64,000 nucleotides of DNA from Candidatus Doudnabacteria bacterium (GCA_041644975.1 JBAZQX010000002.1:84603-148602); one strand, 5' to 3'. Shown: positions 37,285 through 60,962, numbered from the stretch's first letter. Notes: generated by a model from the sequence alone, not told the origin. Program-made: numbers and translations.

Positions 37285-37460
37285 GAATAAACCCCGTTAG
37301 ACCCCATTAGAAATTTATTTCTAATGGGGTAAAATAAATCTCGCCTGTTTTGGGCGAGGTTTATTGTTTATACTTCCATTATGGTTTATTCCGTCCAGGA
37401 TAATAACGGAATAGTTTATCCCGTTAGATGTTTGCTATATAACGGGGTTTACCCCTATTT
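37285..37460 (+). repeat. repeat family D (nested palindromes built on ccccgttagaaataaatttctaacgggg), complex copy
   Basis: accccgttagaccccattagaaatttatttctaatggggt ... ctcgcctgttttgggcgag ... agtttatcccgttag ... taacggggtttacccc. Lies between the 37067 gene and the first NUDIX gene. Confidence 0.65.
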
Positions 37461-37494
37461 TTATTGATGTTATAATATTCAATGCCAATCAAAT

Positions 37495-37896
37495 ATGTTT
37501 AATGATATGCTTAAAATTATCGTCGTTTCCGGACCGGTGATTGTGGAAGACGGCAAAGTCTTATTAAATCAGCACGGCGAGGATAATTTTTGGAAATTCT
37601 GCGGAGGCAGGGTGGAGGATTATAACGTTGATTTAGCGGAAAACGCGCGGCGCGAGGCGAGAGAGGAAATGGGGATTGACATAGAAGTGATTAATAAAAA
37701 TCCTTTTATTATTTATCTCCAAAAAGAAACAGCGGAAGGTAAAGTTGATGTTATTTTAGCGCATTTCTTAGCAAAAAGGATAGGTGAAGTGAAACCTGAT
37801 TCTGAAATCAGGGAGTGGAATTGGTTTTCTATGGATAACCTTCCCGGAAATATAGCGCCAAATGTGAAGCCAGCCTTGAAGCATTTTGGATTTTAA
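37495..37896 (+). CDS. NUDIX hydrolase
   Basis: 133 aa. Nudix box GGRVEDYNVDLAENARREAREEMGI (Gx5Ex7REUxEExGU). Confidence 0.8.
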   Translation: MFNDMLKIIVVSGPVIVEDGKVLLNQHGEDNFWKFCGGRVEDYNVDLAENARREAREEMGIDIEVINKNPFIIYLQKETAEGKVDVILAHFLAKRIGEVKPDSEIREWNWFSMDNLPGNIAPNVKPALKHFGF

Positions 37897-37907
37897 GCCG
37901 TCTATTA

Positions 37908-38075
37908 GCGAGCGAGCCTCGATATCCCTCACTTTACAAAAGTGAGGGATGAGCGAAGCAATCTCATAAGACTCAATATTCATTGAGTTTTAAAAAATTA
38001 TTTAAATGACTTCGAATATTGTCATTAATGAGATTGCTTCGTCGCTCCTTAAGGGTCGCTCCTCGCTAATAGACA
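37908..38075 (+). mobile_element. MITE-like element family E (opposite orientation)
   Basis: Starts ccgtctattagcgag (reverse complement of the ctcgctaatagacgg end) and ends ctcgctaatagacaaagtg. Internal ccctcactttacaaaagtgaggg hairpin. Sits between the two NUDIX genes. Confidence 0.6.
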
Positions 38076-38082
38076 AAGTGCG

Positions 38083-38520
38083 ATGGACAATACTAAAAAA
38101 CCCGGCGTGGGCGTAGGAGTAATGCTTTTAAAAGAGGGCGAGGTCTTGCTCGGCAAGCGGCATTTTGATGCGGCGCGGGCGGACAGCGAACTCCACGGCG
38201 AAGGCACTTGGACTATGCCTGGCGGTAAACTGCATTTTCACGAAGAATTGGAGGGCGCGGCGTATCGCGAGGTCTTGGAGGAAACAGGGGTAAAAATCGA
38301 TCAAAAAAAACTAAGGATGATTAGTGTCACCAATGATATTGTTAAAGACGCGCATTTTGTGACTATTGGTTTTTTATGCGAAGATTTTCGAGGCGAACCA
38401 AAGGTAATGGAACCCGACGAGATTACAGAATGGCGCTGGTTTGCTTTGGACAAGCTGCCTCATCCAATTTTCTTTCCAAGTAGAAAGATTTTAAATAATT
38501 TTTTGAAAATCCAAAAATAA
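38083..38520 (+). CDS. NUDIX hydrolase
   Basis: 145 aa. Nudix box GGKLHFHEELEGAAYREVLEETGV. Confidence 0.85.
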   Translation: MDNTKKPGVGVGVMLLKEGEVLLGKRHFDAARADSELHGEGTWTMPGGKLHFHEELEGAAYREVLEETGVKIDQKKLRMISVTNDIVKDAHFVTIGFLCEDFRGEPKVMEPDEITEWRWFALDKLPHPIFFPSRKILNNFLKIQK

Positions 38521-38562
38521 GGCGAATACCCTTTGAAATCTTTGGCTTGGATAAAAAATAAT

Positions 38563-38586
38563 CCGCTTTTGCAAGCGGTTTCTTTA
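38563..38586. terminator. bidirectional terminator between convergent 38083 (+) and 38623 (-) genes
   Basis: aatccgcttttgcaagcggtttcttt. A-rich on the 5' side and T-rich on the 3' side. Confidence 0.6.
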
Positions 38587-38622
38587 TGAGACTGGAGGGG
38601 GAGGCAATTGTATGTCTCTTTT

Positions 38623-39162
38623 TTATGGGTTGGGTGGATGATGAAAGCGGGCGACTAAATCCATAATTACCTTTTTGATTTTTTGCGGATGGGGGAGGGC
38701 ATTGAAATAAAATTTATCCTGCTCCGCGCCTGCGGATTCAATCTCAATGTCGCCATAGTTTAAAAACGTGGCGAGGATGCCAAACATTTTAATGGAAATG
38801 TCCTGGATATTATATAACTTCAATTCATTTAAGTTATATTTAAAAAATCCTTTTTGTTCATTCTCTATGACTCTTTTATTAGTGACAATTACCGTGTTTA
38901 AGGTGTAAATCATAATATTGTAAAAAGCGATCATCCATAAAATAAAAAGATAAACAGCCGCTAAAAACCAATAGACAGAGGAGAAGATTTCATACCAGCC
39001 GCTTGCCGCAATCAAAAAATAGACCCAGAAAGGAATTAAAGCGAAAAGGGCAAGGACGAAAAGAGGTCCGAATAATCTAATCCAGTGCCGGCGAGTGAGC
39101 AAAATAACTGTTTCATCCGGCTGGCGGCCGCGGAAATTATTTGTGGAAGAAAATATAGGCAT
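38623..39162 (-). CDS. membrane protein with bacterial PH-like (YdbS/YdbT, DUF304-type) domain
   Basis: 179 aa on the minus strand. Two TM helices, then VIVTNKRVIENEQKGFFKYNLNELKLYNIQDISIK, the typical bPH_2 beta-sandwich motif. Confidence 0.6.
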   Translation of the reverse strand: MPIFSSTNNFRGRQPDETVILLTRRHWIRLFGPLFVLALFALIPFWVYFLIAASGWYEIFSSVYWFLAAVYLFILWMIAFYNIMIYTLNTVIVTNKRVIENEQKGFFKYNLNELKLYNIQDISIKMFGILATFLNYGDIEIESAGAEQDKFYFNALPHPQKIKKVIMDLVARFHHPPNP

Positions 39163-39200
39163 AATAAAAAGTGAAAAGTTAAAAGTGAAAAGTGAAGATA

Positions 39201-39437
39201 CTAAAAGATGTTTTGGGAGATTTCGTCCCAGTTAATTTGGCGATAAAGGATAAGAATAATGGCGAAAAAAATAAAAGAACCTAAGAAAAAACATAGGGCT
39301 AAAATCTTAGGTTTAGCCCCCACACCAAAGCGAATGAAATGATAGATAATGCAAAAAGCATACCAAAAATAGATGACAAGGACTACCAAGAAAACAATTA
39401 AGGGAAGATTAAAACCATTTTCAAAAATAGAACCCAT
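39201..39437 (-). CDS. small membrane protein (hypothetical)
   Basis: 78 aa with two TM helices. Co-directional with and upstream of the PH-domain gene. Confidence 0.35.
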   Translation of the reverse strand: MGSIFENGFNLPLIVFLVVLVIYFWYAFCIIYHFIRFGVGAKPKILALCFFLGSFIFFAIILILYRQINWDEISQNIF

Positions 39438-39650
39438 ATTTTATGTTAAGTATAGTTGAATCTATTTTAGCAGGAATCAAATAAATTGGCAAAGAGTTTT
39501 CCCGCGTTTCTAATTATGTTAAAATAGAATCAATTAAAAAATAAAGATAAAACTATGCAATTTAGCGAAGGTATTTTCATGTCGCTTAAAAGAAATTAAA
39601 ACTTGGTTAAAAAAATTAAAATAATTTGTAAAAAATCAAACAAATAAAAT

Positions 39651-40550
39651 ATGGCTGAACCTATTCAGGGTACCTATGTTTGTGGAGATAAAAGTTGCGC
39701 TACTTTCTTGGGAGAGAGCGCGGAGAATTGCCCTCAAGACTGCTTGCCTAGTGGAGGAGGCGCAGAAGGCGCGACCCCTTCTATTATTGATTCTCTGGCG
39801 ATTCACATTAACCCTTGGCTTCTCTTGGCGGGGATTTTAATGATGCTTACCCTCGTCATTCCTTTAATTTATTGGCGCAGGAAAGAAAAGACTCCTTGGC
39901 GTTTTTTCGCTTGGGGAGCACTGATTTGGACTATTAATATTATTATTAAAGCTACCTTAGATTTTACTTTTAATAACACAGTTTTTGCCGCCGTGGGCGG
40001 GATCACGTTTTTTTACGCTCTTTATTTTGGCATCCGGACTGGAGTTTTTGAAAGCGGTCTTTCTTATCTCTTTATTCGCTTGAAAAAAAGAATGAAAGAG
40101 GCGAATTGGGGTGAGGCGGTGGCTTTTGGGATTGGGTTTGGCGGTCTTGAAAATTTTATCCTGGGTCTACAATCATTTTTGACGGCTGTTGTTTTGCTCG
40201 CTGCTCCGGAGGTTCTGCAAAGATTTCCTTCTTCTTTGCAAGCCGAATATCTCAAGGCTTACACCGCTTCTTCTTGGATTATCTTCGCGCCCGCCTTGGA
40301 GAGGATAGCGGCGCTTTTTGCCCATATTTTAGCGAGTGTGCTCCTTTTTGCGGCCGTGAAAACCGGCAAAATGCGTTATTTTTGGTATTCGTTTCTTTAC
40401 AAAATGATCATTGATGGGAGCGTTTTGTATCTTACAAAAATTTCCGTCTCCTCTTTTTTAACCTCGGTTTATTTAGTGGAGATTCCGATTATCATCTATG
40501 GTTTGGTCGGTTTTTGGGGATTAAAGCGGTTAAGGAAAATATATTCTTAA
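39651..40550 (+). CDS. polytopic membrane protein with N-terminal extracytoplasmic Cys motif, possibly YhfC/CPBP-like intramembrane protease-like
   Basis: 299 aa. N-terminus CGDKSCATFLGESAENCPQDC is the same Cys module as in the 27272 protein. About 7 TM helices. GFGGLE and FAHILAS segments hint at an intramembrane metalloprotease-like core. Weak. Confidence 0.6.
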   Translation: MAEPIQGTYVCGDKSCATFLGESAENCPQDCLPSGGGAEGATPSIIDSLAIHINPWLLLAGILMMLTLVIPLIYWRRKEKTPWRFFAWGALIWTINIIIKATLDFTFNNTVFAAVGGITFFYALYFGIRTGVFESGLSYLFIRLKKRMKEANWGEAVAFGIGFGGLENFILGLQSFLTAVVLLAAPEVLQRFPSSLQAEYLKAYTASSWIIFAPALERIAALFAHILASVLLFAAVKTGKMRYFWYSFLYKMIIDGSVLYLTKISVSSFLTSVYLVEIPIIIYGLVGFWGLKRLRKIYS

Positions 40551-40559
40551 GGATTCTTG

Positions 40560-40690
40560 GATTATGAAATTCTTAAGATACTCCTTCTTCGTCAAAGGAA
40601 AGTAAAACTTCTCCCCTGACACTTGTCTCATATTTTGTGCGGGAAGGGGAGATTAGAGAGGGGTTTATTATCAATCAGCGCGCATTATTT
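40560..40690 (+). repeat. GC-rich structured intergenic element (family-E core-like)
   Basis: See 58930 entry. Lies between 39651 gene and 40829 gene. Confidence 0.45.
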
Positions 40691-40828
40691 TACAAGGCGC
40701 GGAGGAAAAGACCGCAGCCTTGTTTTTTTATTGAAGATTTGCTAAACTATCTTGTTTTACAAATTAAGTATGGAATCGGTTGTTAATAGAGAAATATAGA
40801 TTGACGGCTTTTTAAACAAAGGAGATGA

Positions 40829-43087
40829 GTGATGGAAGAGATTAATGTATTTATCCCTGGGAAGATTGTGCGGTTGTCGGTAGAAGATTTGGAAGGTAAT
40901 CAAAGCGAGGAGCGCTTTAAGGTCCAAAAGAGACTCGGCACGGGTTACGCGGGCGAAGTCTATCTCTTGACCCATCAGGATTCAGAAGAGCAGAATTCAG
41001 AAGAGAAGGTAGTCTTGAAAATTATGCGTTCGGGCAATTTTTTAAAGAGAATTATCGCGCTCTTGGCGCGGCTATTCGCTACTTTTGATTTTGCTTGGTG
41101 TGAGGCGGAGGTAAAGATGGCGGTTTTGCACCATACGCTTTTACCCCTTGCGGTCAAAAAGAGGACAGGAAAAGATTATCTCATCCCTTCTTGGCGCCGC
41201 AGTTATACTTGGATTCCAGAAAAGAAGGCGTGGGGGATTTTTTTAGAGTATGATGATCTCCGTTCTGCCTATCATGGGACATTGTCCGGAGTAGGCGATC
41301 TAGAGGTTAAAGAGCGGGCGGGGGCAGCCCATATTTTAATCGATTGTTTCAAGGGGGTTGGCGCTCTTGCCTTTGCGTGGCAGTTTAATCATTTTAAACG
41401 CGAGCCGAGAGGCAGGTGGTATGTCTGGTACACCCTGTTTTGCGCCTTAGCCGTTCTTCTTCTCACCATCTTTTTAGACCTTCCTTATGATCCAAAAGTG
41501 AATGTGCTGGCGGTTTTGTGTCTTTTTTTCAGTCTCGCAGGCGCCTCTTGGTTATCCGCGGATAATCTTAAAAAAAGTGAAAAGTACGGATTTTTCCGCG
41601 GTCCGGATTTAGAGCTGGGAATGCCGCACATTGGGTTCTGTCTGCCTGTAGGATTCCTGGTTGTGTCAGCTCTCTCTCTGATGCATAAATTTTGGGGACT
41701 TTCTCCCTCTTGGGCGATTTTTTTAGCCTTACTCTTTTCTCCGGGTTATCTTTTCTTGTTTGAGTTGCCCTTGTTTTGGGAGAATATCAAGAAGGGCTAT
41801 CCTATTCCTTTTGGACAATTGGAGATAGAGGGGTTTGCTTATGCTTTCGGGAGTGATCCGGAATTTCAAGAAGATATTGAGCGATACCGCTCCCTACTTT
41901 ATCAGTTTGAGTCGGGAAGACTTAATCCGATTAACCGTTTGTTCGTTCTGTTGGTTTTAAGGCGGCTTTTGCCTTTTTTTGGGCGGGAATGGCGGTCGCG
42001 CACGATTGAACGTTGGGAACTGAAGGAAAAAATCACTTTAGAGCGAGTGCGGAAGATGCGAGAAAATTTTGCTCATTATTTCTTTTTCTTGGTGGTAAGT
42101 TTGTTTGGCATAATCCCTTGGCGTTTTATTTTAGACCGCGTTTTTCGCCATAGGCAAATCATTTATCGGAAGATGAAGCGGCTGGAAAAGATGTTGCAAA
42201 AAGGGCAGATAAGCCGCCGGACGGCAAGAGGATTAGCTCTGGTCGGAGTAAGCTTATTTTCTTTTTTCTTAAGCTTTATTCTGATTAGGAAGTTTTATCG
42301 CCTTGTTTTTGAGCGGCATTATCGGAGGCTTTGGCTGCGCAATACCTTTAAGATTTTCTGGAGCAGAGAGTTTCTGAAAAGGCGGGCGGTCGCTCGTTTT
42401 CAGCGCTATCTGACGAATCAAAGGCGCGATGGCCGCATCACGGATCAGTATTATTACAGGATAAAGCATTTACAGAAAGTAACCGCTATTCACTGGTGGT
42501 TAATCCTGTATTTTAGCTTGCTTGCCCCCAAGTCAGTCACTTGGTCTGTGCGCATCGCGGCAGTTTCAGGATTTTTAATGGCCCGGAAGTTATTAGACAT
42601 AATGCCGGGATTGCCTAACTGGCTTGCCGAGATCATCAGGTATGATATTATTCCGCACGTGCCGGGCTGGCTTGCCGCTATCATCTTGGGGCTGGGAATT
42701 ACAGCCTTATATGAGATCGTGGCCACACTGATCTTTGGAGCGTTTTTTCTCCTGCGGCTTATTCCGCGGCTGAAGGTGGAGAGGTTTTTAGTGGGTCGAG
42801 TTATTGTGGCTTTGTTGAATTTTCTCCTGTATGTTATTTTCGCTTGCCTGAATGGCGTCCCCGGATTTTCTATTTTAGGAGTGCCATTGGCTGTGTCTTC
42901 AACACCCTATCATTCTTCCTTTTGGCTGTTAACAATAATCCGTTGGCAGTCATTGTTCTTGGGATTTATTCGTCTTATATCCCTTGGAATGTGGGATAAA
43001 GGAGGACTGGGGGAATTCTATTTTGCCGAGCTTGGCGTTAACAGCCAAGCCCGTATTGTTCTTAAACTTTGCTCCCTGCCTGTTTAA
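40829..43087 (+). CDS. protein kinase-like N-terminal domain fused to large polytopic membrane domain (hypothetical)
   Basis: 752 aa. Gly-rich loop LGTGYAGEVYL and the lysine strand VVLKIMR are followed by a hinge-like FLEY. No canonical HRD/DFG is seen. More than 10 TM helices follow. Confidence 0.65.
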   Translation: MMEEINVFIPGKIVRLSVEDLEGNQSEERFKVQKRLGTGYAGEVYLLTHQDSEEQNSEEKVVLKIMRSGNFLKRIIALLARLFATFDFAWCEAEVKMAVLHHTLLPLAVKKRTGKDYLIPSWRRSYTWIPEKKAWGIFLEYDDLRSAYHGTLSGVGDLEVKERAGAAHILIDCFKGVGALAFAWQFNHFKREPRGRWYVWYTLFCALAVLLLTIFLDLPYDPKVNVLAVLCLFFSLAGASWLSADNLKKSEKYGFFRGPDLELGMPHIGFCLPVGFLVVSALSLMHKFWGLSPSWAIFLALLFSPGYLFLFELPLFWENIKKGYPIPFGQLEIEGFAYAFGSDPEFQEDIERYRSLLYQFESGRLNPINRLFVLLVLRRLLPFFGREWRSRTIERWELKEKITLERVRKMRENFAHYFFFLVVSLFGIIPWRFILDRVFRHRQIIYRKMKRLEKMLQKGQISRRTARGLALVGVSLFSFFLSFILIRKFYRLVFERHYRRLWLRNTFKIFWSREFLKRRAVARFQRYLTNQRRDGRITDQYYYRIKHLQKVTAIHWWLILYFSLLAPKSVTWSVRIAAVSGFLMARKLLDIMPGLPNWLAEIIRYDIIPHVPGWLAAIILGLGITALYEIVATLIFGAFFLLRLIPRLKVERFLVGRVIVALLNFLLYVIFACLNGVPGFSILGVPLAVSSTPYHSSFWLLTIIRWQSLFLGFIRLISLGMWDKGGLGEFYFAELGVNSQARIVLKLCSLPV

Positions 43088-43112
43088 AAAACAGCGCAGG
43101 GTTTTTTATTTT
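43068..43112 (+). terminator. terminator overlapping the stop of the 40829 gene
   Basis: ccctgcctgtttaaaaaacagcgcaggg + ttttttattttg. Confidence 0.6.
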
Positions 43113-43118
43113 GTATTT

Positions 43119-43284
43119 TTAATTACGAAATACATTTTGTTATTGCGAGAAGCTTGATTACACTCCCCCTGCCCTGAGCGGGGAGATAAGAGGGGGAGGG
43201 AGAATAGTAGACCCCTCCTAATCTCCCGCTTCTCTAAGCGGGAGGAAAAATCCTTCGCTAATAGACGGTAATATTTCGTAATTC
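43119..43284 (+). mobile_element. MITE-like element family E
   Basis: Left TIR attacgaaatacattttgttattgcgag. Right cttcgctaatagacggtaatatttcgtaat, near-reverse-complement of the left. The core ccctgagcggggagataagagggggagggag...ctcccgcttctctaagcgggagg is strongly self-complementary. Confidence 0.7.
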
Positions 43285-43308
43285 AAGCTTTTGTAATATA
43301 ATGGGGTT

Positions 43309-43986
43309 ATGATAAGCAACAAAATTTCCCGAGCCGTCATCCAAAAAATAGAAAAAGAAGCTAAAGAATATTTTCGCGGTGCGAGTGGCTGCCACGATTT
43401 TAGCCATGTGGAAAGGGTTTTGAAACTCGCGCTTCACTTGGGTCGCAGAGAAAAAGCGGATTTAGGCATTTTAGAGGTCGCGGTTTTATTGCATGATATT
43501 GGACGGCGCGCAGAAATGAAGGCGAAAGGAACTTTTTGTCATGCTGAAGCTGGGTCTGCCTTGGCGCAAAAAATTTTAGGGAAGTATAAATTTGATAAAG
43601 ACACGGTGAGGAATATTATTCATTGCATCAGGACTCACCGTTTTCGCGACCGCCGGAATGTTCCGAAAACCATTGAGGCTAAAGCGCTGTTTGACGCGGA
43701 TAAATTGGATTCTATCGGCGCGGTTGGCTTGGGTCGCGCCTTTCTATTCGCGGGTGGCGCGGGTTCGGGTAATCTTTATACGGGCAATGAGAGACGTTTA
43801 GCGAAAACAGGATGCGACTACTCTTTTACCAAGGAGGACTCTGCTTTTCTAGAATACGAAATTAAACTGAAGAAAATTAAGGATGTGATACTTACCGCAA
43901 GCGGCAGGAGGATTGCCCTTGGCCGGCATAGGTTTATGGTCAGTTTTTGGCAGCAGTTTTGGCAAGAGGTGGCAGGGAAAAAATAA
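43309..43986 (+). CDS. HD-domain metal-dependent phosphohydrolase
   Basis: 225 aa. H...HD motif: FSHVERVLKLALHLG ... LLHDIGR ... second His region IRTHR...DADKLD. Confidence 0.85.
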   Translation: MISNKISRAVIQKIEKEAKEYFRGASGCHDFSHVERVLKLALHLGRREKADLGILEVAVLLHDIGRRAEMKAKGTFCHAEAGSALAQKILGKYKFDKDTVRNIIHCIRTHRFRDRRNVPKTIEAKALFDADKLDSIGAVGLGRAFLFAGGAGSGNLYTGNERRLAKTGCDYSFTKEDSAFLEYEIKLKKIKDVILTASGRRIALGRHRFMVSFWQQFWQEVAGKK

Positions 43987-44000
43987 TGTTATAAAAATTT

Positions 44001-44561
44001 ATGCGCAAATGGAGATGTCAAAAATCAGAACTCATTTTGGATACGAAATATTTTAAAGTGCGCAAGGATACTGTCAAATTACCGAATCAAGAAATGATAG
44101 AATGGATTTATTGGGACAGCAAAGATTCGGCAATGGTTTTGGGTATGACTCCGGATAAAAAGCTGGTGATGATTCGGCAGTACCGTTATTTAGTAGGCAG
44201 GGAGGTATTGGAATTTCCCTCCGGCGGCTTGCATAACAATGAGAATATTGAGGAATGCGCGCGGCGGGAATTTGAAGAGGAAAGCGGGTATAGGTGCAGT
44301 CAGCTAATTAAGCTCGGTTCATTTTATGAAACCTATAGCCAACTTAATCGCGAAATCCATTTGTTTTTCGCGCCGCAAGCGCGAAAAACCAAACAGAATC
44401 TAGATCAAGGCGAAAAAGGTTTTGAAGATATCAAGGTAGAGCTCGTGGAGTTTAAGGACGCGGCGCGGATGGCATCCGACAATACTATTGTCGCTGTGGG
44501 CTCGGCTTTAGCAATTTTGTTACTAAAGGAGAAGATAGAAAATAAGGATATTAAAATTTAA
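44001..44561 (+). CDS. NUDIX hydrolase (ADP-ribose pyrophosphatase-like)
   Basis: 186 aa. Nudix box GGLHNNENIEECARREFEEESGY. Overall length and layout like NudF. Confidence 0.8.
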   Translation: MRKWRCQKSELILDTKYFKVRKDTVKLPNQEMIEWIYWDSKDSAMVLGMTPDKKLVMIRQYRYLVGREVLEFPSGGLHNNENIEECARREFEEESGYRCSQLIKLGSFYETYSQLNREIHLFFAPQARKTKQNLDQGEKGFEDIKVELVEFKDAARMASDNTIVAVGSALAILLLKEKIENKDIKI

Positions 44562-44573
44562 AACTATTCATTT

Positions 44574-45227: not shown

Positions 45228-45336
45228 ATGGGTTAGCGACAGCCCTTGAAGAGACTATTATTTGATAAGACCATCTTTAAGGTGTCGTTCTGGGAGATTA
45301 TATGGTAAAATAGAAATAGAAAATTAAAATAAAAAT

Positions 45337-47376: not shown

Positions 47377-47415
47377 CTGTGGTTTATATCTAACCAATCT
47401 TCTTGAAGAAATTTT

Positions 47416-47748: not shown

Positions 47749-47760
47749 GAGAAATAAATG

Positions 47761-48560: not shown

Positions 48561-48597
48561 TTTACCCCGTTAGAAATAAATTTCTAACGGGATTTAC
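48561..48597 (+). repeat. repeat family D, core copy
   Basis: tttaccccgttagaaataaatttctaacgggatttac. Perfect palindrome ccgttagaaataaatttctaacgg. Starts 2 nt after the stop of the 47921 gene. Confidence 0.75.
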
Positions 48598-48647
48598 ACT
48601 ATTGGCGGCTTGCAGTAAAATAAAGCTAGAAACTAAATTTAAAATTT

Positions 48648-50230: not shown

Positions 50231-50312
50231 TAAATTTACCCCGTTAGCCCCGTTAGAAATAAATTTCTAACGGGTTTAGAGAACGAAGTTCTCTAACGGG
50301 GTAAATTAGAGA
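50231..50312 (+). repeat. repeat family D, extended copy with two inner hairpins inside an outer inverted repeat
   Basis: gtaaatttaccccgttag-ccccgttagaaataaatttctaacggg-tttagagaacgaagttctcta-acggggtaaattagag. The outer arms aatttaccccgttag / ctaacggggtaaatt are complementary. Confidence 0.8.
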
Positions 50313-50452
50313 ATCTAGAAGTTGTTTGGATTTTGATTAATTTTTGCGTTTGAACAAGATATTTTTCATTTTAGATTTTCAGGAATATTTTTTATTCTGC
50401 GCGTTTTATATAAGGTGAAATTTTAAGATTATATTTTTAAAATATAACTAAA

Positions 50453-50496
50453 CCCCCACACCACGGATTTACATCCGTGGCATTCTGGTGTGGGGG
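50453..50496 (+). promoter_or_regulatory. strong 5'-leader stem-loop 20 nt upstream of the giant gene's start codon
   Basis: cccccacacc-a-cggat-ttac-atccg-tggcattct-ggtgtggggg. 10-bp outer stem plus 5-bp inner stem. Not followed by a T-run on the + strand. Confidence 0.5.
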
Positions 50497-50515
50497 TAAA
50501 TATAAAAATAAATGT

Positions 50516-53500: not shown

Positions 53501-55318
53501 TACGTGATTCCAATTAAAATTGATCAAGATTTTAACGCTATTATCCCCAAAGATAGCGAAGCCGCCCGTATGCTTTTTACGCAGGACGCGAAAGGTCAAG
53601 CGGATTATTTAGGGGATCACGCCGAAGTATCCCAGATGATGGGGAAGACGAATACTGAAGGAGCGGAATGGATTAGAGTTTTAGCGACAGACAGCGGAAA
53701 GAACGCGCCGGTCATCCCCGAGCCCGTGGAGCCTGTTCCGATTCCGATTTTTGAAATTCCGCCGCAGACTGATTTGCCGCCGGTGATACCAATATTGGGG
53801 AGAAAGCCGATGGAGAAAATGGCGCGACAAGAGAAACCGATTATACCTCTTTATCCTTATCCTTATTATGGTTCAGGGTCGGCGGAAAATATATTAAGAG
53901 AATTTGAAAGTCGCGGCATCAAGACCGATCCCTATATAGTTGAAATGCAGGATAGGAAACGAGTCTTGAAAAAAGAAAATGGAGAGAAGATTGAAAGAAT
54001 TATTGAACGTGAAAATAAGCACATTCAAGATTATTTAGAAAGTTTAAGTCCCGAGCATAGAAAAGAGTTAGAAGAATTAGATAGTGGGTTACCTCCTATG
54101 GAGAAAGAATGTCGCATAGCAATAATTATTCCGGCTCGGTTTGAAGGTAAAAATCTATCTAATCTTTTAGACCAATATACGAAACAGGTAGATGCCGATG
54201 GCAATGAACTTAATCCCAATCTTTTTGAGGTCAATGTTATTATTAATAAAAAGAATTCAGAACAGTGGGATGAATCAATGGATATAGTTCAAGATTGGAA
54301 AAGAAAAAATCCAAATATTAAGGTTAATGTGATTCAAAAATCGTTTGACGATGATAAAGGTTGCGTGGGAATTGCAAGAAAGTATATTACAGATTTGTCC
54401 CTTTTGCGTTCACTAAAAAGAAAAGAGCAAGATGGGTCCCTATATATTGAATCGGAAGATGCAGATTTGTTCAGTATAGATAAGAGGACAGTATCAAAAT
54501 TAATTCGTGATTTTGATCATAGTCCAGAAATTGATGTGTTGAGAGGAGTGCAGGACAGGCAACCGGAGATTTTGATGGAGAATGATTTATTATTTTTCCA
54601 GAGGCGATTGTCGGATTTTATGGAAGCTTTTTTAAGAGATAGAAAATATAGACCAGAGAGTAATCCGGAGTCAGATTTTGTTTGGCATAGGGTAGTAAGC
54701 GGGGGTTGGAACACGGCTTATACGGCCGAGGCTTACAGTCAAATCGGCGGTTATAATGAAAAAATGGTTATTGGGGAGGATATGGATATTGGGCAAAAAA
54801 TATCGGTTTTAAGAGGGAAGAAAGACGCTGGAAGCGGCGATTTTATTCCAAATACTTGGACAGCTAGGGCTTCTGGTTTGCGCGCTAATTCCAGCCCGCG
54901 TAGATTTATAGACGCCTTAAAGAGAAAGATTTCTCCGTATGAAGATTTTGAAAACCAATCTTTGAAAGGCAAGACATTAGATGAGTTGATGGAGAGCATC
55001 AAGAATTATGAAAAAGCAAGTGACAGCCAGACTAAGGATTATCAGGATACTATTAATTTCGCGGCGGATTTTGTTAAAGCGACATTCAAGAACAATAAAC
55101 AGGGTTGGCAAAGGGTGATGAAGCGCGCTTTAAGCGCGATGGGCTTGAGAGATCAAAAAGATTATGTATTTAGAGAGACTAATATTGAGCTTGATTCGGA
55201 AGGAATGAAGACAATTATTAAAAAATTGGATGATTATAAACAGGAGAGGCGTTGGAAGCTTGGATATCGTCGCCAGACAAGGGAAGCTGAATCTAATACT
55301 GGAAGAGTGCCATTTTGA
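50516..55318 (+). CDS. giant membrane protein with charged coiled-coil N-terminal region, 2-3 TM segments and C-terminal GT-A (family-2-like, DxD) glycosyltransferase domain
   Basis: ~1600 aa. Start set at ATG 50516 (MSEENNPG), after an A-rich leader. The ORF-track GTG at 50477 lies inside a strong hairpin. TM segments LAVGATAVYCIGRAI / IALFGGTAALSGAYAGIL / AAVTGLILGATF. C-terminal domain: CRIAIIIPARFEG (GT2 strand 1), ESEDADLF (DxD), GGWNTAYTAEAYSQIGGYNEKMVIGEDMDIGQKI (GT2 GGxxE...GEDxD motif). A terminator follows at 55344. Confidence 0.85.
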   Translation: MSEENNPGKDLGIEHKFPSPDEQNRDIQNSPLPLPDGRQARGELDAEAEQQGEPARPSVERKEKTPESREEILASLDFTLAWLAESIKKAQTEEEKNRLQWILDSAQNSLKESREAYDGKYEVKSGENVQREGASVDDLLEWLGVEISALTQEGKAEVVEKLERARQILEQNKQSYWRAHFDKELSEINWDEATKQKQDWRTEYEAGLISRDWRATGNQDSDYKKAEDAMAKRQELILPVLSGQEEETEIKPQKQAQEEETIKVQERPEETPTESREEGPKKEKVVFANVSAMIEAAAWDAANAKMTEGKEKLGGAKGFFNKIKNIGKRLWKYNWAYETYRRNEYEKAKKRIYRDYKEGRIDIDKLNILAAEDETSRQEKHHEAMGAMFDRFASEYDEAVEGEAGEEKKKIEDESIKREIRELIRDYAEGSISEGDLARKHNEILGKVAGPDVDVKLEVDNLLEIAERIKRLDGHNRAREALELDLEIIRGRARGGIKTEAGLGRLDRIIDKMKKMRGLSWINETTLAVGATAVYCIGRAISKRFAYSKAANIALFGGTAALSGAYAGILENKRVKEERAQHARERAKGKTFAPEARRRQEMEKFRYETAEAKTILQELQNNYDVYEIKGKRKLKDLSGEELGQALGNLADLEARLSLSNAHKIDLIQYSAPAEVETERTKLLLLRSRIKADLEGKYPAGFKIKGKNQNLDDLVNISKAELTQGKDEAEGISKKDDEFDKMKAKRVAKRVAQAAVTGLILGATFQEIQAAMDDNTQSLLEGILDKNTDAGHQTALEGLRDWITPQKGEGAAQELSKIMIAGHEVQVGLPKGAELKDPNGDGVYSLFYHNKELCDKVSFDEKGNLTNEARAALASRGVHITETLPEGGAKEALAGVSTPEGRMTFVEKYSELFKKITHEMWYDNNTPKPIFDHNELRLDWGGENGLGINENGDYVYSIQRMTADGSWHKEFSVDAHEAAGRGGLSLLLSASHDTEQYVIPIKIDQDFNAIIPKDSEAARMLFTQDAKGQADYLGDHAEVSQMMGKTNTEGAEWIRVLATDSGKNAPVIPEPVEPVPIPIFEIPPQTDLPPVIPILGRKPMEKMARQEKPIIPLYPYPYYGSGSAENILREFESRGIKTDPYIVEMQDRKRVLKKENGEKIERIIERENKHIQDYLESLSPEHRKELEELDSGLPPMEKECRIAIIIPARFEGKNLSNLLDQYTKQVDADGNELNPNLFEVNVIINKKNSEQWDESMDIVQDWKRKNPNIKVNVIQKSFDDDKGCVGIARKYITDLSLLRSLKRKEQDGSLYIESEDADLFSIDKRTVSKLIRDFDHSPEIDVLRGVQDRQPEILMENDLLFFQRRLSDFMEAFLRDRKYRPESNPESDFVWHRVVSGGWNTAYTAEAYSQIGGYNEKMVIGEDMDIGQKISVLRGKKDAGSGDFIPNTWTARASGLRANSSPRRFIDALKRKISPYEDFENQSLKGKTLDELMESIKNYEKASDSQTKDYQDTINFAADFVKATFKNNKQGWQRVMKRALSAMGLRDQKDYVFRETNIELDSEGMKTIIKKLDDYKQERRWKLGYRRQTREAESNTGRVPF

Positions 55319-55343
55319 TGACCATATAATTTGATAAACAAAA

Positions 55344-55372
55344 ATAGACAGAAATCTCTGTCTATTTTTTGA
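55344..55372 (+). terminator. rho-independent terminator after the giant gene
   Basis: atagacag-aaatct-ctgtctat + tttttgat. Confidence 0.8.
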
Positions 55373-55495
55373 TATATTAAATTCTCGATTATCTTTGAGG
55401 ACAAGATTTTGTCCGCAAGGGGAATCGAGAGAGGGAGCACAAGATAATGAGCAAAATGATTGTGAAATGATTTGCTCCCTCCTCGGGGACGAGTA

Positions 55496-55966
55496 TTAGC
55501 TCGTCTTCTGTTGGGGTTGTTGGGATTTTTTGTCGGCTGGTTTCGATGGTTCGGGGATCTTTTCCCATTCCAGGACAAAGGTGTCTAGATATTTACCATC
55601 TTTTCCGTATCCATTGATCACGAAACCGAAATTGCCGATAAAGACCCTTTTTTGAGCGGCAGTGCCTATTTTTTTATCCATATCTGTTTTGAGATCTTTA
55701 TTCTTTTCAATGATCTCCAAAACAATAGACGTAAAAGCGATTCCGCCGTTTTCAGTCCAGGCGAGTTTTGGGCTCATTCCAGGGAAGAAGGCTTCCACTG
55801 TTTCTTCAATTTTCTGGAGATTTTCCCTCCCTTTATTAAAGGTAGTGTACCTCGATGTAGCGTCTACGGGGTAGACTACTTCAGCGGTGTTATATTGTTC
55901 GTCAAGGTTTATCTTAAGATTTTTTTGACCTTCCAACTTTTTCAATTCTTCAAATAGATTTTTCAT
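55496..55966 (-). CDS. hypothetical soluble protein (possible small-molecule-binding alpha/beta domain)
   Basis: Minus strand. Start at MKNLFEEL preceded by AGGAGG (reverse complement of 55967-55980). 156 aa. No confident family. Confidence 0.5.
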   Translation of the reverse strand: MKNLFEELKKLEGQKNLKINLDEQYNTAEVVYPVDATSRYTTFNKGRENLQKIEETVEAFFPGMSPKLAWTENGGIAFTSIVLEIIEKNKDLKTDMDKKIGTAAQKRVFIGNFGFVINGYGKDGKYLDTFVLEWEKIPEPSKPADKKSQQPQQKTS

Positions 55967-56318
55967 TTTTAACCTCCTGTGCAGACAGTGAATAGCAACA
56001 AGCCCCATTGCTTGCGCTATTTTAAAGATTTAATTCTGGATTCCCGTTGGAGTTTATTTCATATTCATTATGGGACGGGAACAAAAAATAGGTGATTAAA
56101 TCGTCTAAAATAGCACAAGCAAGTGAAATATAGAAAGAGCGTAGTTCGTTTTATGTTTATTAGTATATCATATTTTGATTAAAAAGTCAATGCTCGGAGT
56201 CTATTTTGGCTAAGGTAAGCTCAAAAATTGATAATAATATTTATTTCTACTGTTTTTTGGGATAATCTGTTTTGCAATTGTGGCTTTTTTTTGTTAAAAT
56301 AGAAAAGAGGATAATTTC

Positions 56319-57998
56319 ATGCAATTTAAACTTTTAAAATTTTTTGTTTTTATATTAATACTGGGAGGTTTTTGTTTCGGATTCGGGCATTTTGTTTTCG
56401 CGAAGTCTTGGGACTTTGAAAAATGGGTGAGTGATATTATCATAAACCCGGACTCTACTTTTATGGTGCGGGAGACGCAGACGGTGAATTTTAATGGCTC
56501 TTTTACTTGGCTAAAAAGAGATATCGCGTTAAAGCGCTTCAAGAAGATTAGCGATATCGCGGTTTATGATAGCGAGGGGCGCAGGCTTTCTGCCGGCGAG
56601 GTGGAGATTAGCCGTAGTGTGGGCAATGTGGGCGTGAAAATTAATACGCAGGCTCAAGACGAACAAAAAACTTGGACGATTGAATACAAGATCCACGGCG
56701 GGATTGGCTTTTTTAAAGATTATGACGAGTTATACTGGAATGCCATATCTTCGGCGCGCGATGTGCCGATTAAATCCGTAGAGGTTTTCGTGCATCTGCC
56801 GCAAAAGGCGCCGGAGGGTGAGTTGAAACAGAGATTATTCACAGGCGCAGTCGGCTCTCAAAATGAAGTCCAGAATTTTAATGTTTTGGAGGATGGCGCT
56901 TTGCATTATTGGGGAAAGGATATCGCGCCGAATACAGAGTTCACGATTGTCGCCGGTTGGCCGAAAGGCATTGTGAAAAGGGACTTATGGCTTGCGTTTT
57001 CGCCTTATCTTTGGTCTTTAATTCCTATCGTTACTTTTGGTTTTTTATTTTTCAAGTGGTGGAAGAGCGGCCGCGATCCCAAGATGAAAGGAACGGTTAT
57101 TCCCCAATATGAACCGCCGAACAAAATGACGCCTGCTGAAATGGGCGTTTTGGTCCGCGAGAAGGTAGAGATGAAAGATATTTCCGCGACCCTGGTTGAT
57201 TTAGCGCGGCGCGGCTATTTAAAAATCGCGGAGGTGGAGAAAAAGGGGATCTTCACCACTTCTCGCACTTATAATTTCGCGCGCCAAAAGGATTTCAGAA
57301 GCGATTCTACTTTAAAAGAGCATGAGCGTTTGATTTTAAATGGTGTTTTGGGCGACCGGGAACAAGTTTCTTTAGAAGATTTGGAAAATAAGTTTTACCG
57401 CCATATTACCGGCATTAAAAATGCAGTTTTGGACGAGGTCACGCGGTCTGGTTATTTTAAGCAAAACCCGTCTCGCGTGATGCAGAAGTACATTGTTTGG
57501 GGGATACTTTTACTCGTCCTGGGCGGAGTAGGCTCATTTTTATATTCCAGTGAGCTTCTGCCGCCTTTCGCTGTGGGTTTCGCCGGCATTTTCCTCATCA
57601 TCTTCGGCCGTTTTATGCCGGCTAAAACTAAGAAGGGAGCGGAAGCAAAATGGCAGACCCTAGGCTTTAAAATGTTTTTGTCTGTCGCGGAACGATTTCG
57701 CTTGAAGGCTAATGTTGACCCTCGGATGTTTGAGAAATATCTTGCTTTTGCGATGGTTTTGGGCGTGGAAGGGAAATGGGCAAATCGTTTTGCGGACATT
57801 TATACCGAGCCGCCGGATTGGTATACTCCTGTTTCCGCTTGGACCGCCTTTTCTCTCATTAATTTTTCCAGCAATATTTCGTCAATGTCCAACAGTTTTT
57901 CTTCAGTTCTCTCTTCTTCTCCTTCCTCTTCTTCAGGATTTGGCGGAGGCGGGGGAGCGGGCGGAGGAGGTGGTGGTGGCGGCAGTTCCGCGGGGTAA
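56319..57998 (+). CDS. DUF2207 family membrane protein
   Basis: 559 aa. Signal/TM, N-terminal beta-rich ectodomain, two TM helices mid-protein, typical Ser/Gly tail SSSSGFGGGGGAGGGGGGGGSSAG. Followed by a LemA gene, the canonical pairing. Confidence 0.8.
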   Translation: MQFKLLKFFVFILILGGFCFGFGHFVFAKSWDFEKWVSDIIINPDSTFMVRETQTVNFNGSFTWLKRDIALKRFKKISDIAVYDSEGRRLSAGEVEISRSVGNVGVKINTQAQDEQKTWTIEYKIHGGIGFFKDYDELYWNAISSARDVPIKSVEVFVHLPQKAPEGELKQRLFTGAVGSQNEVQNFNVLEDGALHYWGKDIAPNTEFTIVAGWPKGIVKRDLWLAFSPYLWSLIPIVTFGFLFFKWWKSGRDPKMKGTVIPQYEPPNKMTPAEMGVLVREKVEMKDISATLVDLARRGYLKIAEVEKKGIFTTSRTYNFARQKDFRSDSTLKEHERLILNGVLGDREQVSLEDLENKFYRHITGIKNAVLDEVTRSGYFKQNPSRVMQKYIVWGILLLVLGGVGSFLYSSELLPPFAVGFAGIFLIIFGRFMPAKTKKGAEAKWQTLGFKMFLSVAERFRLKANVDPRMFEKYLAFAMVLGVEGKWANRFADIYTEPPDWYTPVSAWTAFSLINFSSNISSMSNSFSSVLSSSPSSSSGFGGGGGAGGGGGGGGSSAG

Positions 57999-58358
57999 AT
58001 TCCCGCATCATCAAAATTTTGCCGCGGGGGTAAATTTTATGTTATAATTAAATTACCTGTAGACTATAGTAATTTATGCAAAAACCTCTCAAAAAGAAAA
58101 AGAAGAGTATTACTATTGATGACTTAGCTAGGATGGTTCAAATAGGGTTTAATGAGACAGCAAAACAGAAGGATATGGATAACGTTTTAAGTCAGCAGAT
58201 GAACATTTTGATTCCATAGAAGAACGATTAGCTAGGATTTAAAATATCCTTATTCTTGATGCCGCATTGAAAGATTAGGAGGAGATATGAAAGAATTGAA
58301 AGAAATTTTTGTGGTTAAATAATTTTTTAACATTAATTTTGATTCCAAGGGAATCAAA

Positions 58359-58928
58359 GTGAGTAAAAAAACTATGATTATTTTATGGATCATCCTTGGT
58401 GTGGGAGCGCTGTTGGTATTCTTCATCATTGGAGTCTACAACGGCCTCATAAAATTAAAAAATCTGACGGAAGAGGCTTGGTCAGATATTGATGTGCAGC
58501 TCAAAAGGCGGTACAACCTCATTCCTAATTTGGTTAATACGGTGAAGGGATATGCCGCTCATGAAAAAGAAGTTTTTCAGAAAGTAACTGAAGCGCGCGC
58601 CCGCGCGATGGGTGCGAAAAATCCCGAAGAGATGGCGGAAGCCGAACAGGGACTCTCTGGGGCATTGAAGACTTTATTCGCCGTTGCCGAAAATTATCCA
58701 GAATTAAAAGCCAATGAGAATTTTTTGAAACTACAGGAAGATTTAACAGACACGGAGAATAAGATTGAGGCAGCGCGCCGGTTTTACAATGGTAATGTGA
58801 GGGATTACAATACCAGGCAAGAAGTTTTTCCATACAGTATAATTGCCAAGACGTTTGGATTTACAAAACAGCAGTTTTTCCAGACCGAAAATGAGGAGGA
58901 AAGAGAGGCGCCCGAGGTGAAGTTCTAG
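58359..58928 (+). CDS. lemA: LemA family protein
   Basis: 189 aa. N-terminal TM. NGLIKLKNLTEEAWSDIDVQLKRRYNLIPNLV...YAAHEKEVFQKVTEARA is the LemA signature region. Confidence 0.9.
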   Translation: MSKKTMIILWIILGVGALLVFFIIGVYNGLIKLKNLTEEAWSDIDVQLKRRYNLIPNLVNTVKGYAAHEKEVFQKVTEARARAMGAKNPEEMAEAEQGLSGALKTLFAVAENYPELKANENFLKLQEDLTDTENKIEAARRFYNGNVRDYNTRQEVFPYSIIAKTFGFTKQQFFQTENEEEREAPEVKF

Positions 58929-58929
58929 C

Positions 58930-59095
58930 GAGTATTTTTTCATCTTGTGTTTTCCCTGCCTCCTCCTTGGCCTTGCTCTGCCGACCTGTCCGCCGAAGTG
59001 AAACGAAGGAGGAAGCTCTAAAGAGCGTAGGTGGGTAAGGGGGAGTGATTCTTTCTCCCCTGACAAGGGGAGATGAAAGAGGGGTTTTTAACTTA
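58930..59095 (+). repeat. GC-rich structured intergenic element sharing the ctcccctgaca..ggggagat.agagaggggttt core with 40560-40690 and 43119-43284
   Basis: ttctcccctgacaaggggagatgaaagaggggttttt at 59050-59090, compared with ttctcccctgacacttg...ggggagattagagaggggttt at 40600-40665. Confidence 0.5.
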
Positions 59096-59104
59096 ATAAA
59101 ATTA

Positions 59105-59138
59105 ATCCCCCGCCTTTGAAGGCGGGGGATTTTTTCTT
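59105..59138. terminator. bidirectional terminator between lemA (+) and the PQQ-repeat gene (-)
   Basis: atcccccgcc-tttgaa-ggcgggggat + ttttttc. Perfect 10-bp stem, A-rich upstream. Confidence 0.85.
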
Positions 59139-59246
59139 TTCTTTTGTTTTTTCTCCTGCTTTGCCTTTATTTAATTTCAGGCAAAGCAGGTTTTATCTCA
59201 CGAAAAAAGCGCTTTTACGGAGATTGATCTTGTGTAAAATTACTGA

Positions 59247-60416
59247 TTATTTACCGAAAGCAGTGATTGTTGAATTTTTATCTGTATGCGAGACCACGAT
59301 AATCATTCCGGGACTTACTGTGGCTGGCGTGGTAATCTCACCGGCTAATTTCTTTTTCCAAATCAGAGTGCCCGCGCGGTCCACGCAGTAGAAATTACCG
59401 CTTTGGTTACCAAAGCATATTTTTTTATCGGCGACAATCGGAGAGGCTTCCGAGGCTACGCCACTTTTGTAGCGCCAAAAGATATTGCCATTATCGCTAC
59501 CCATACTAGTTAGTTCACCATTGCCGTTTAAAGCATAAATACGGTTATAGGCGAGGGCGGGGGCATCGTTAAATTCATCGCCTCCTTCTTTAGACCAGGA
59601 GAGCGTGCCATCACTGTAACGGAATGCGTATATTTTACCGTCTGTGCCTCCGGCATAAATCAAGTTATTTCCCGCTGATACAGAGGTCAATTTGGTGTTC
59701 GCGTCCGTTTCATATGACCAATATTGGTTGCCATTACTGGGATTCAGGCAAAAAAGCTCAAATTTGTTCTCCGTGTTTGTTTCCACGCCCACGTAAATTT
59801 TGTTTTTGTAAATCGCGGGCGAGGTTGAAATTTTGTCCCCTAGTTTTTCGCGCCAATCCCTTTTACCCGTTTGCACATTTAAGGCGTAAAGATAGCCATC
59901 TTCTGAACCTATAAAGACCTGATTTCCGAGAATAACCGGTGAAGAATTAATTATTCCTTCGGTGAGATGGCGCCAAACCTGTTTTCCATCCTGTACATTT
60001 AAAGCGTAGACAAATTTATCTTGACCGCCGATAATTACTTTATTCGCGCTGATGGTCGGCGAAGATTTCCCAAAGGATTTTTGTCCTTTGAAAGTCCACA
60101 GTTCTTTGCCAGTCTTTAAATCAAGAGCGTGCACTTTTCCGTCTAAAGCGCCAAAAAAGACTTTATTCTCGGCAACCGTGGGAGAGCCCAGGATGACTCC
60201 TTTTTGATTGCCTTTCTCTTTGAGTTCATAAGCCCAGGCGACCGTAGCATTGGCTGGCGATCCGCTGGTGGAAAATCCTGTCCGGCTGACATCGCCGTGA
60301 AAGGTGAACCAGGTACTTGCTGATAAACCCAGAAGATCAGGCTTAATAATGGTAATGCAGAAAACAGCAAGGGCGCCTGTACCCACACAAAGAAGAAGGG
60401 TTAAAACCTTTTTCAT
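59247..60416 (-). CDS. PQQ-repeat beta-propeller protein (BamB-like), secreted
   Basis: 389 aa on the minus strand with a signal peptide. Repeated GKVHALDLKTGKELWTF / YVYALNVQDGKQVWRH / YLYALNVQTGKRDWRE blades, i.e. the PQQ-like repeat. Confidence 0.8.
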   Translation of the reverse strand: MKKVLTLLLCVGTGALAVFCITIIKPDLLGLSASTWFTFHGDVSRTGFSTSGSPANATVAWAYELKEKGNQKGVILGSPTVAENKVFFGALDGKVHALDLKTGKELWTFKGQKSFGKSSPTISANKVIIGGQDKFVYALNVQDGKQVWRHLTEGIINSSPVILGNQVFIGSEDGYLYALNVQTGKRDWREKLGDKISTSPAIYKNKIYVGVETNTENKFELFCLNPSNGNQYWSYETDANTKLTSVSAGNNLIYAGGTDGKIYAFRYSDGTLSWSKEGGDEFNDAPALAYNRIYALNGNGELTSMGSDNGNIFWRYKSGVASEASPIVADKKICFGNQSGNFYCVDRAGTLIWKKKLAGEITTPATVSPGMIIVVSHTDKNSTITAFGK

Positions 60417-60569
60417 ATTTTTGATTTTAATTTTTTATGATTTTCAAAGTTAGCTTGATTATAGCACATCTCTACTTTATGCGCAAAAGGCGTGGATTAT
60501 TTATCCCCAGTTGTGATGAGAGAAATAAAGAACCAATAATGGTATAATAGAATCAATAATAATTATTAG

Positions 60570-60632
60570 TTTACCCCGTTAGAAATAAATTTCTAAGCAG
60601 GGTTAGAGAATAAAGTTCTCCAACGGGGTTTA
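60570..60632 (+). repeat. repeat family D, extended copy
   Basis: tttaccccgttagaaataaatttctaagcagggttagagaataaagttctccaacggggtttac. Same architecture as 50231, more diverged. Confidence 0.7.
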
Positions 60633-60637
60633 CAAGA

Positions 60638-60880
60638 ATGATTTTTGGCGTAATTTTGGTGGCAATAGGGGTAATTTTTCTATTGCAAAACCTAGACATT
60701 ATTACGGGCAACGCGTGGAAGATTATTTGGCCGATAGTGGTGATTTTGATTGGGATTGGGTTTATCTTTAGTCGGCGGCGGCGTCTCGCGGATCAGAATC
60801 AGCCTAACCGCCGCAGGTTTTTTAAAGAGAGACCTGGCCATTTTGAGCAAGAAAGCGGAAAGCGGGGCAAGGAGGAATAG
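60638..60880 (+). CDS. small membrane protein (hypothetical)
   Basis: 80 aa with two TM helices then an Arg-rich tail. Flanked by family-D palindromes. Confidence 0.4.
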   Translation: MIFGVILVAIGVIFLLQNLDIITGNAWKIIWPIVVILIGIGFIFSRRRRLADQNQPNRRRFFKERPGHFEQESGKRGKEE

Positions 60881-60926
60881 ATTTAAGCGATCCAGAAAGG
60901 GGAGGGGTTTTTATTCCTTAAGCATT

Positions 60927-60962
60927 TTACTCCGATAGAAATAAATTTCTAACGGGGTTTAC
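60927..60962 (+). repeat. repeat family D, core copy
   Basis: tttactccgatagaaataaatttctaacggggtttac. Between the convergent 60638 (+) and rpe (-) genes. Plausibly a bidirectional terminator. Confidence 0.7.

Follow-up and report, generated by a model that had tools for sequence, protein, structure and literature searches.

Very short hairpin repeats in a Candidatus Doudnabacteria genome are probably minimal non-autonomous transposable elements

Hairpins of family D and the genes around them

A stretch of 64,000 nt (the window) from a metagenome-assembled genome (MAG) of Candidatus Doudnabacteria, a Patescibacteria lineage (GCA_041644975.1 JBAZQX010000002.1:84603-148602), was analyzed for a family of short hairpins, here called family D, that recurs in its second half. 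The window sequence was also found in independent assemblies at 99.96–100% identity and is therefore not an assembly artefact. It was compared with 20 kb of the same genome that reach past the window end (L064), with the sequence upstream of the window (L102), with JAQUNI01 (L066) and with gene-order relatives retrieved via Rpe, a 245-aa protein and an HD-domain protein. Full alignment of L064 with L066 over 20 kb gave 88% DNA identity (12% divergence).

Scanning for the 24-mer CCGTTAGAAATAAATTTCTAACGG with up to three mismatches located it at five places in the window, where none was expected from 100 dinucleotide-preserving shuffles. The matches at 48567 and 50250 were exact, while those at 60932, 37304 (other strand) and 60576 had one, two and three mismatches, respectively. 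An earlier reading of the sequence (the initial annotation) had described a perfect palindrome at five places; the places were recovered, but only two copies are exact, and the repeat is not a perfect palindrome. The unit consists of arms of 11–13 bp (CCCCGTTAGAAAT) around a non-symmetric AA, so that the opposite strand of the 24-mer matches it with two mismatches. The arms CCCCGTTAGAAAT and ATTTCTAACGGGG form 13-nt terminal inverted repeats (TIRs), with 96% of the stem cells paired over 17 variants, and the minimal unit measures approximately 28 bp (two 13-bp TIRs and a 2-nt joint). In longer relatives, 10–130 nt separate these arms, or the arms combine an invariant foot, CCC(C)RTTA, with an upper stem that is variable but complementary. 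A covariance model trained on the 17 hairpin variants returned six D loci in the window, namely the five known ones and 37417–37449 (E ~6e-4), and nothing more (Table 1). The hairpins fold alike on either strand (−14 to −40 kcal/mol, z −3.3 to −8.4). Family D is multi-copy and non-coding, with four copies per 20 kb in both L064 and L066; no tRNA genes were found in the window, nor any tRNA or tmRNA association there.

Table 1. Family D copies and a second palindromic insertion in the window.
Feature	Position	Strand	Sequence and structure	Flanking tetranucleotides	Support
D copy 1 (37.3 kb)	37292..37329	−	Extra half-site CCCCGTTAG (37292-37300), then hairpin CCCCATTAGAAAT-TT-ATTTCTAATGGGG (37302-37329)	TAAA both sides (37288-91, 37330-33)	Covariance model, 48.6 bits, E 1e-10
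D copy 2 (37.42 kb), degenerate, absent from the initial annotation	37419..37447	+	(T)CCCGTTAG-atgtttgctata-TAACGGGG	TTTA both sides	Covariance model, E 6e-4
D copy 3 (48.6 kb)	48565..48592	+	Exact core	TTTA (48561-64, 48593-96)	24-mer match, covariance model
Nested composite (50.2 kb)	50239..50301	+	Perfect host hairpin CCCCGTTAGAGAAC-GAA-GTTCTCTAACGGGG, split after CCCCGTTAG by D core (50248-50274/5)	Outer: TTTA (50235-38), TAAA (50302-05)	Fold −39.6 kcal/mol, z −8.4; covariance model
Two-hairpin D copy (60.6 kb)	60574..60628	+	D core with decayed right arm (CTAAGCAGGG), then decayed AGAGAA-type hairpin	TTTA (60570-73, 60629-32)	Covariance model, folding, orthologue in L066
D copy (60.9 kb)	60930..60957	+	CTCCGATAGAAAT-AA-ATTTCTAACGGGG; one unpaired T>A	TTTA (60926-29, 60958-61)	Covariance model, orthologue in L066
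Second palindromic insertion, unrelated sequence	50453..50496	+	CCCCCACACCAC...GGTGTGGGGG	TAAA (50449-52, 50497-500)	Missing in four relatives

The genes next to these copies differ, as do the positions of the copies relative to them. D copy 1 begins 21 nt past the stop codon of a 67-aa open reading frame (ORF) and is directly followed by a canonical terminator (37333–37365). The right TTTA of D copy 2 opens the −35 box (TTTACC-17-TATAAT) of a NUDIX gene, and D copy 3, which begins 5 nt past the stop codon of a 212-aa gene, touches the −35 box of a promoter-like site (TTTACA-17-TAAAAT, 48593–48621); both of these promoter-like sites are conserved in relatives. A separate terminator-like hairpin precedes the 50.2-kb composite. 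The 60.6-kb copy lies between divergent genes, 9 nt 5' of the ATG (60638) of a liaF-like gene for which no obvious Shine-Dalgarno sequence was found. Since an extended −10 box (TGgTATAAT, 60540–60548), conserved in JAQUNI01, lies upstream of this copy, positions 60574–60637 would make up most of the 5' untranslated region (UTR) of the liaF-like gene, within which the copy probably lies. At 60.9 kb the copy overlaps a stop codon: on the minus strand, the last two codons (PR) and the TAG stop (60949–51) of ribulose-phosphate 3-epimerase (Rpe) belong to the right arm of the element. The last three of these positions contradict the initial description of the repeat as always lying after stop codons or between convergent genes.

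Insertion polymorphism, nesting and decay

Five of the six window copies have matching TTTA or TAAA flanks of 4 nt. When 33 independent simple copies were examined, 15 were flanked by a direct repeat of 4 nt or more, compared to 7% in a control of mismatched flank pairs (P = 2e-9). The repeated tetranucleotide varied by copy, being TTTA, TAAA, TGAA or CTAA within one genome, with TCAA, TCAAG and CTTG found elsewhere.

Presence or absence of the elements was polymorphic among relatives. At 50.2 kb, a 78-nt insertion present in the window and in L071 was cleanly missing in L066, L070 and L072, where the empty site reads AAATTT/ATTAGAG (the slash marking the junction). The 37.42-kb copy was missing in L090, which has a single TTTA before the conserved promoter. 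A 112-nt D composite with TTTA on both sides (L064 4121–4232) was missing in L066 and, conversely, a 153-nt nested composite with a perfect TAAA duplication (L066 8405–8557) was missing in L064 (empty site gacaaaTAAAaaactATG). L070 and L072 share the 48.6-kb copy, there with a single compensated base pair and an extra TCTACGGGG; no D hairpin was found at the corresponding site of the distant L101, whose divergence is too great for an empty site to be defined exactly. Gene order was broken in L090 at the 37.3-kb site. A small gene with a PF01035 match (methylated-DNA methyltransferase DNA-binding domain; L064 4265–4634), located beside the polymorphic 112-nt composite, was likewise missing in JAQUNI01.

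Copies were also found inserted in one another. Nested D copies lie directly after CTAA or TTAG within the arm of another copy, with the tetranucleotide duplicated, and insertion at these arm sites gives rise to forms with an outer inverted repeat and a second hairpin. In the 50.2-kb composite, TTAG is duplicated around the D core (50244–47, 50276–79). Two copies had initially been assigned to such an outer repeat; inverted outer flanks were confirmed only for the 50.2-kb copy, the 60.6-kb copy being a related two-hairpin form with direct TTTA flanks. One Buchananbacteria MAG carries the D core inside a miniature inverted-repeat transposable element (MITE) of ~165 nt with TIRs of its own. Among these carrier copies the D loop differs, AA vs. 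TT, between L025, L032, L033, L056 and L058 on the one hand and L017, L018, L031, L038 and L063 on the other, so that the short spacer apparently flips.

The copies at 60.6 and 60.9 kb are orthologous in JAQUNI01, that at 60.6 kb differing by ~9%. In the orthologous copies at 60.6, 60.9 and 48.6 kb (also 50.2 kb), substitutions mainly break pairing, and divergence is close to the genome-wide 12%. This decay in place speaks against strong selection on individual copies; the machinery that moves them may still read the hairpin itself. Changes that preserve pairing were also observed, namely a compensated pair in the 48.6-kb copy of L070 (CCCTG...CAGGG) and a compensated G>A/C>T change in D copy 1. 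In a hand-picked set of variants, the foot CCC(C)RTTA does not change, the upper stem differs but remains complementary, and 7 of 12 stem pairs covary, a count that is descriptive only.

Spread among genomes and effects on genes

An exact scan for the 21-nt core CCRTTAGAAATAAATTTCTAA, with one genome per species, returned 63 contigs. According to the titles of the MAG records, these belong to Patescibacteria (many), Omnitrophota, Nitrospirota, Planctomycetia, NPL-UPA2 and others, and the Buchananbacteria MAG alone accounted for ~18 of them. Across the motif-bearing contigs a hairpin of 28–30 nt is conserved, and its flanks are unrelated, save where a copy is carried by a longer repeat specific to one genome, as with the Buchananbacteria MITE. 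The core had 0 matches in 2.9 million viral contigs (IMG/VR), and a viral origin was rejected on this ground.

Within 273 kb chosen by protein similarity and not by motif, the model matched only L064, L066 and L070–72, and no D hairpin was found in the next relatives (79% amino-acid identity) or in more distant ones. A horizontally spreading element would give just such a patchy distribution together with an identical core in differently labelled phyla. The distribution within this genome is uneven as well: the covariance model found no D hairpin in the first 37 kb of the window or in the 10 kb upstream (47 kb in total), which are followed by 8–9 D loci in ~35 kb. The confinement to the second half, noted initially, was thus confirmed, and further copies occur past the window end (L064 1621–1716 and 4135–4218). 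Upstream of the window start, at ~3.1–3.5 kb (L102 6503–6883), lies a gene with bAvd and 23S_rRNA_IVP Pfam matches; bAvd is an accessory protein of diversity-generating retroelements, one of which may be located next to the window.

As read from the sequence, a single frame of the D element is open in each orientation (PVRN[K/L]FLTG), and TAG or TAA closes the remaining two. The element can therefore supply the stop codon of rpe here and be read in-frame in other genomes. Rpe ends in ...MRKPR and is 3–8 residues shorter than nine aligned homologues. A Nitrospirota MAG (L013) has the D core read as VRNKFLN within a Ni_insertion/LarC Pfam domain that is matched in a single stretch (E = 1e-147). 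In other Patescibacteria, D lies in-frame 8–13 codons past an upstream ATG, and before the Pfam domain where one was found, in about 10 genes (ValRS-type, NTP-transferase and GT2 genes among them), forming N-terminal ...PVRNKFLSGANGV segments. At several start codons, the junctions read ATGAA/CCCC...GGGG/TGAA, and the terminal G together with the duplicated TGAA re-creates GTG (ATG where the terminal G is A). A junction of the type ATGAA/element/TGAA is found at the start of smpB of this genome, just past the window (~6 kb beyond its end), where D is present in both species (L064 1618–1740, L066 2015–2060; ATGAA-CCCCGTTAGAAAT...CTAACAGG-ATG). In a Planctomycetia-labelled MAG, the ATGA overlap of ruvA and ruvB is duplicated around the element. 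Gene callers can be misled by such insertions, which produce N-terminal extensions such as that of a 1613-aa ORF (see below) and 'ISNPVRNKFLSGANGV' N-termini.

Some related observations were made on individual copies. The loop of the smpB element of this genome holds an additional insertion of 78 nt, and in L066 a D arm directly follows a tRNA/tmRNA-like 3' end (GGTTCAACTCCCATCATGTCCA-CCCCGTTAG). Only one kilobase-spaced pair of arms, in L006 (1084...2413), was a candidate for an element enclosing an ORF; it encloses ruvC and ruvA, and was therefore taken to be two separate elements.

Nature of the elements and other repeats in the window

We consider it likely that family D consists of very short non-autonomous transposable elements, MITE-like in kind and of the size of repetitive extragenic palindromic (REP) sequences. 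A transposase acting in trans, not encoded in the window, would insert them at A/T-rich tetranucleotides (TTTA, TAAA, TGAA, TCAA, CTAA). Insertion would duplicate 4 nt, as after a staggered cut by a transposase of the DDE kind, and the dependence of the duplicated tetranucleotide on the site favours a DDE-type enzyme in trans. Because the arms themselves hold CTAA/TTAG, copies could land in one another, resulting in the nested forms. Copies would persist only where they are harmless: after stop codons, 5' of TTTAC −35 boxes, in 5' UTRs, at start codons and at tolerant in-frame spots. Tolerance would be helped by the single open frame per orientation, the stops in the other frames, and the terminal G that re-creates GTG with TGAA. 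The element would be active now, or have been so formerly, in this lineage, and the hairpin might also have an effect on RNA. A MITE with nested TIRs had been one of the suggestions in the initial annotation, and it is supported by the empty sites, the 4-nt duplications, the nesting at CTAA/TTAG and the patchy distribution.

Several points weigh against this interpretation. No transposase or autonomous element with these ends was found in the window or the ~27 kb adjoining it (Pfam and gene tables of L064, L102 and L104), and all-against-all BLASTP of 395 ORFs from the 63 loci revealed no recurrent gene beside the motif. A length of 28 bp is below the 50–500 bp usual for MITEs (PMC10969869). 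The outer flanks of the 50.2-kb composite (TTTA...TAAA) are not a clean duplication, and nearly all flanks in this genome are TTTA, also fitting a hairpin transposase with a fixed target. The compensated pair and the covarying stem pairs hint that hairpin formation itself matters. Finally, the phylum labels come from record titles that were not checked independently.

The nearly uniform TTTA target in this genome, together with the 50.2-kb insertion that lacks a clean duplication, leaves an enzyme of the HUH class as the main rival, albeit an improbable one. The hairpins would then be similar to REPs or REPINs (paired REPs) or derived from insertion sequences (IS) of the IS200/IS605 family, and a Y1 transposase of the type associated with REPs (RAYT) would move them single-stranded, reading the hairpin foot and inserting 3' of a fixed tetranucleotide. 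What appears as a duplication would be the target and an identical cleavage tetranucleotide at the 3' end. The REP-like size (28–32 nt), the constant foot CCCCGTTA under an upper stem that varies while remaining complementary, the TTTA(C) flank shared by five of the six window copies, the 50.2-kb insertion and the failure to find a DDE transposase in the window, the adjoining sequence or the 63 loci would all fit such a mechanism. On the other hand, copies with the same hairpin have different flank tetranucleotides, each equal to that of its own target, and a GTAG-type head is absent. Nor was a Y1 transposase (PF01797-type) found in ~100 kb of this genome (gene tables, Pfam), and the copies show no clear strand bias while lying on a single replichore.

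It appears very unlikely that the hairpins are functional RNA or DNA structures under selection (3'-end stabilizers, leaky terminators or insulators), with their spread being secondary. Their stability on both strands, the three window copies that follow stop codons, the retention of the 48.6-, 60.6- and 60.9-kb copies since the split from ~88%-identical relatives and one compensated pair are consistent with a function, but orthologous copies mostly lose pairing, and orthologous sites free of the element do not differ in gene order or promoters. Intrinsic (Rho-independent) terminators and SPRITE-like repeats share with D the G+C-rich stem base and the placement after genes, and differ in that D has an AT-rich upper stem and no 3' T tract. 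Termination was rejected as the role of the hairpins: the tails read TTTAC or TAAA, a terminator scan called no copy, three of the six are not at a 3' end, the element also occurs in a 5' UTR, at start codons and inside ORFs, and canonical terminators adjoin the 37.3- and 50.2-kb copies. A known RNA family was rejected as well, since Rfam 15 gave 0 matches at the gathering score in the window and none on the copies at E ≤ 1 (36.5–61.5 kb). Sub-threshold Rfam matches at 59033–59144 (suhB/mmgR, anti-hemB and others) correspond to two ordinary G+C-rich terminator hairpins between LemA and PQQ-propeller genes. Still less credible is an operator of a dimeric transcription factor acting on the adjacent promoters, likewise an initial suggestion, despite the dyad symmetry and the −35 boxes abutted by the 37.42- and 48.6-kb copies. 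L090 has the same promoter without the site, and orthologous promoters are otherwise conserved in its absence. Moreover, the copies are heterogeneous in position relative to genes, nested and decaying, the identical core occurs beside unrelated genes in unrelated phyla, and no helix-turn-helix gene is linked to D.

As minimal transposable elements, the D hairpins resemble the prokaryotic MITEs (Correia/NEMIS of Neisseria, Chunjie, QMITEs of Coxiella) in being non-coding, in their TIRs and short target-site duplication, in their many dispersed, mostly intergenic and polymorphic copies, in presumed mobilization in trans and in altering the ends of neighbouring genes. They differ from them in that D, in essence two adjoining TIRs, is only ~28 bp long and has no known parent IS, its core is identical across labelled phyla and its copies nest systematically in their own arms. 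REP/REPIN sequences with RAYT of Enterobacteria and Pseudomonas are similar in size (20–40 nt), imperfect palindromic symmetry, location at gene boundaries, clustering or nesting and compensated stem changes. Unlike these, which insert without target duplication, D copies show 4-nt duplications that vary with the site, lack a GTAG-like head, are not species-specific, and no RAYT gene was seen. IS200/IS605-derived palindrome-associated transposable elements share hairpin-based mobility, very short length and a short A/T-rich target, but have distinct left and right hairpins with neither TIRs nor duplication, whereas D is one symmetric hairpin with direct repeats. Palindromic elements of Rickettsia reportedly lie within protein-coding genes, as described by Ogata and co-workers in 2000. 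They survive there with one open frame and a short added peptide (PMC10969869). Family D is likewise inserted in-frame in ORFs (LarC of L013, ~10 N-termini and the C-terminus of Rpe); however, the Rickettsia elements are 100–150 bp long and occur in Rickettsia only, while D measures 28–32 bp, has an unrelated sequence, is found in other phyla, adds a peptide of 9–16 residues and is mostly intergenic.

Going further, the 28-bp D core, with nothing but its two TIRs, would be the smallest self-sufficient substrate of transposition so far seen, circulating horizontally among ultra-small episymbionts (Patescibacteria, Omnitrophota) and co-resident phyla, with some composites domesticated as 5' cassettes; we regard this extension as rather unlikely. 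If it were true, shared copies would trace DNA exchange and possibly host-symbiont links, and the cassettes (either a hairpin with a restored GTG/ATG start or a PVRNKFLSGANGV extension at the N-terminus) would set translation initiation of many Patescibacteria genes. If the identity of the core across phyla holds, it would offer a way of following recent gene flow between uncultivated lineages of groundwater. Genomes of Patescibacteria (Candidate Phyla Radiation) are small and thought to be poor in mobile DNA, yet at least two families of tiny palindromes explain several of the larger intergenic indels between close relatives, and such insertions alter gene ends by providing stops, starts, longer 5' UTRs and in-frame peptides. 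MITE finders usually skip elements below ~50 bp, so that elements of this kind have probably been overlooked in general. In the searchable literature, no paper with the D sequence was found, and none on MITEs or REPs in Patescibacteria.

The second of these families, represented in the window by the 50453–50496 palindrome, is unrelated to D in sequence and shows the same behaviour; another form reads CCCCCACACCACGGAT...GGTGTGGGGG. Its palindromes (CCCCCACACCAC...) correspond to several other large intergenic indels between L064 and L066. Indel polymorphism of related elements was seen at L066 2920 and L064 6905, and in L006, L016 and L037 such elements supply the outer hairpins that enclose D cores. 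The mechanically assigned GTG start (50477) of the 1613-aa ORF lies inside the 50453–50496 palindrome, whereas the start conserved in the relatives is ATG 50516 (MSEENNPGK...).

Other repeats are present in the first 22 kb of the window, namely a terminator-like AAAAATCGCC...GGCGATTTTT and GGGGTCAGGTCTTGAAATTTGACCCC. Intergenic modules of 50–110 nt are repeated at window positions 8720, 10983, 17780 and 18728. Tandem coding repeats occur in large ORFs for surface proteins (2385–2881, 3636–4311 and 27976–28504), with units of the GLUG/HYR type of 78–84 nt and ~230 nt, and Cys-rich MopE-like units of 156 nt.

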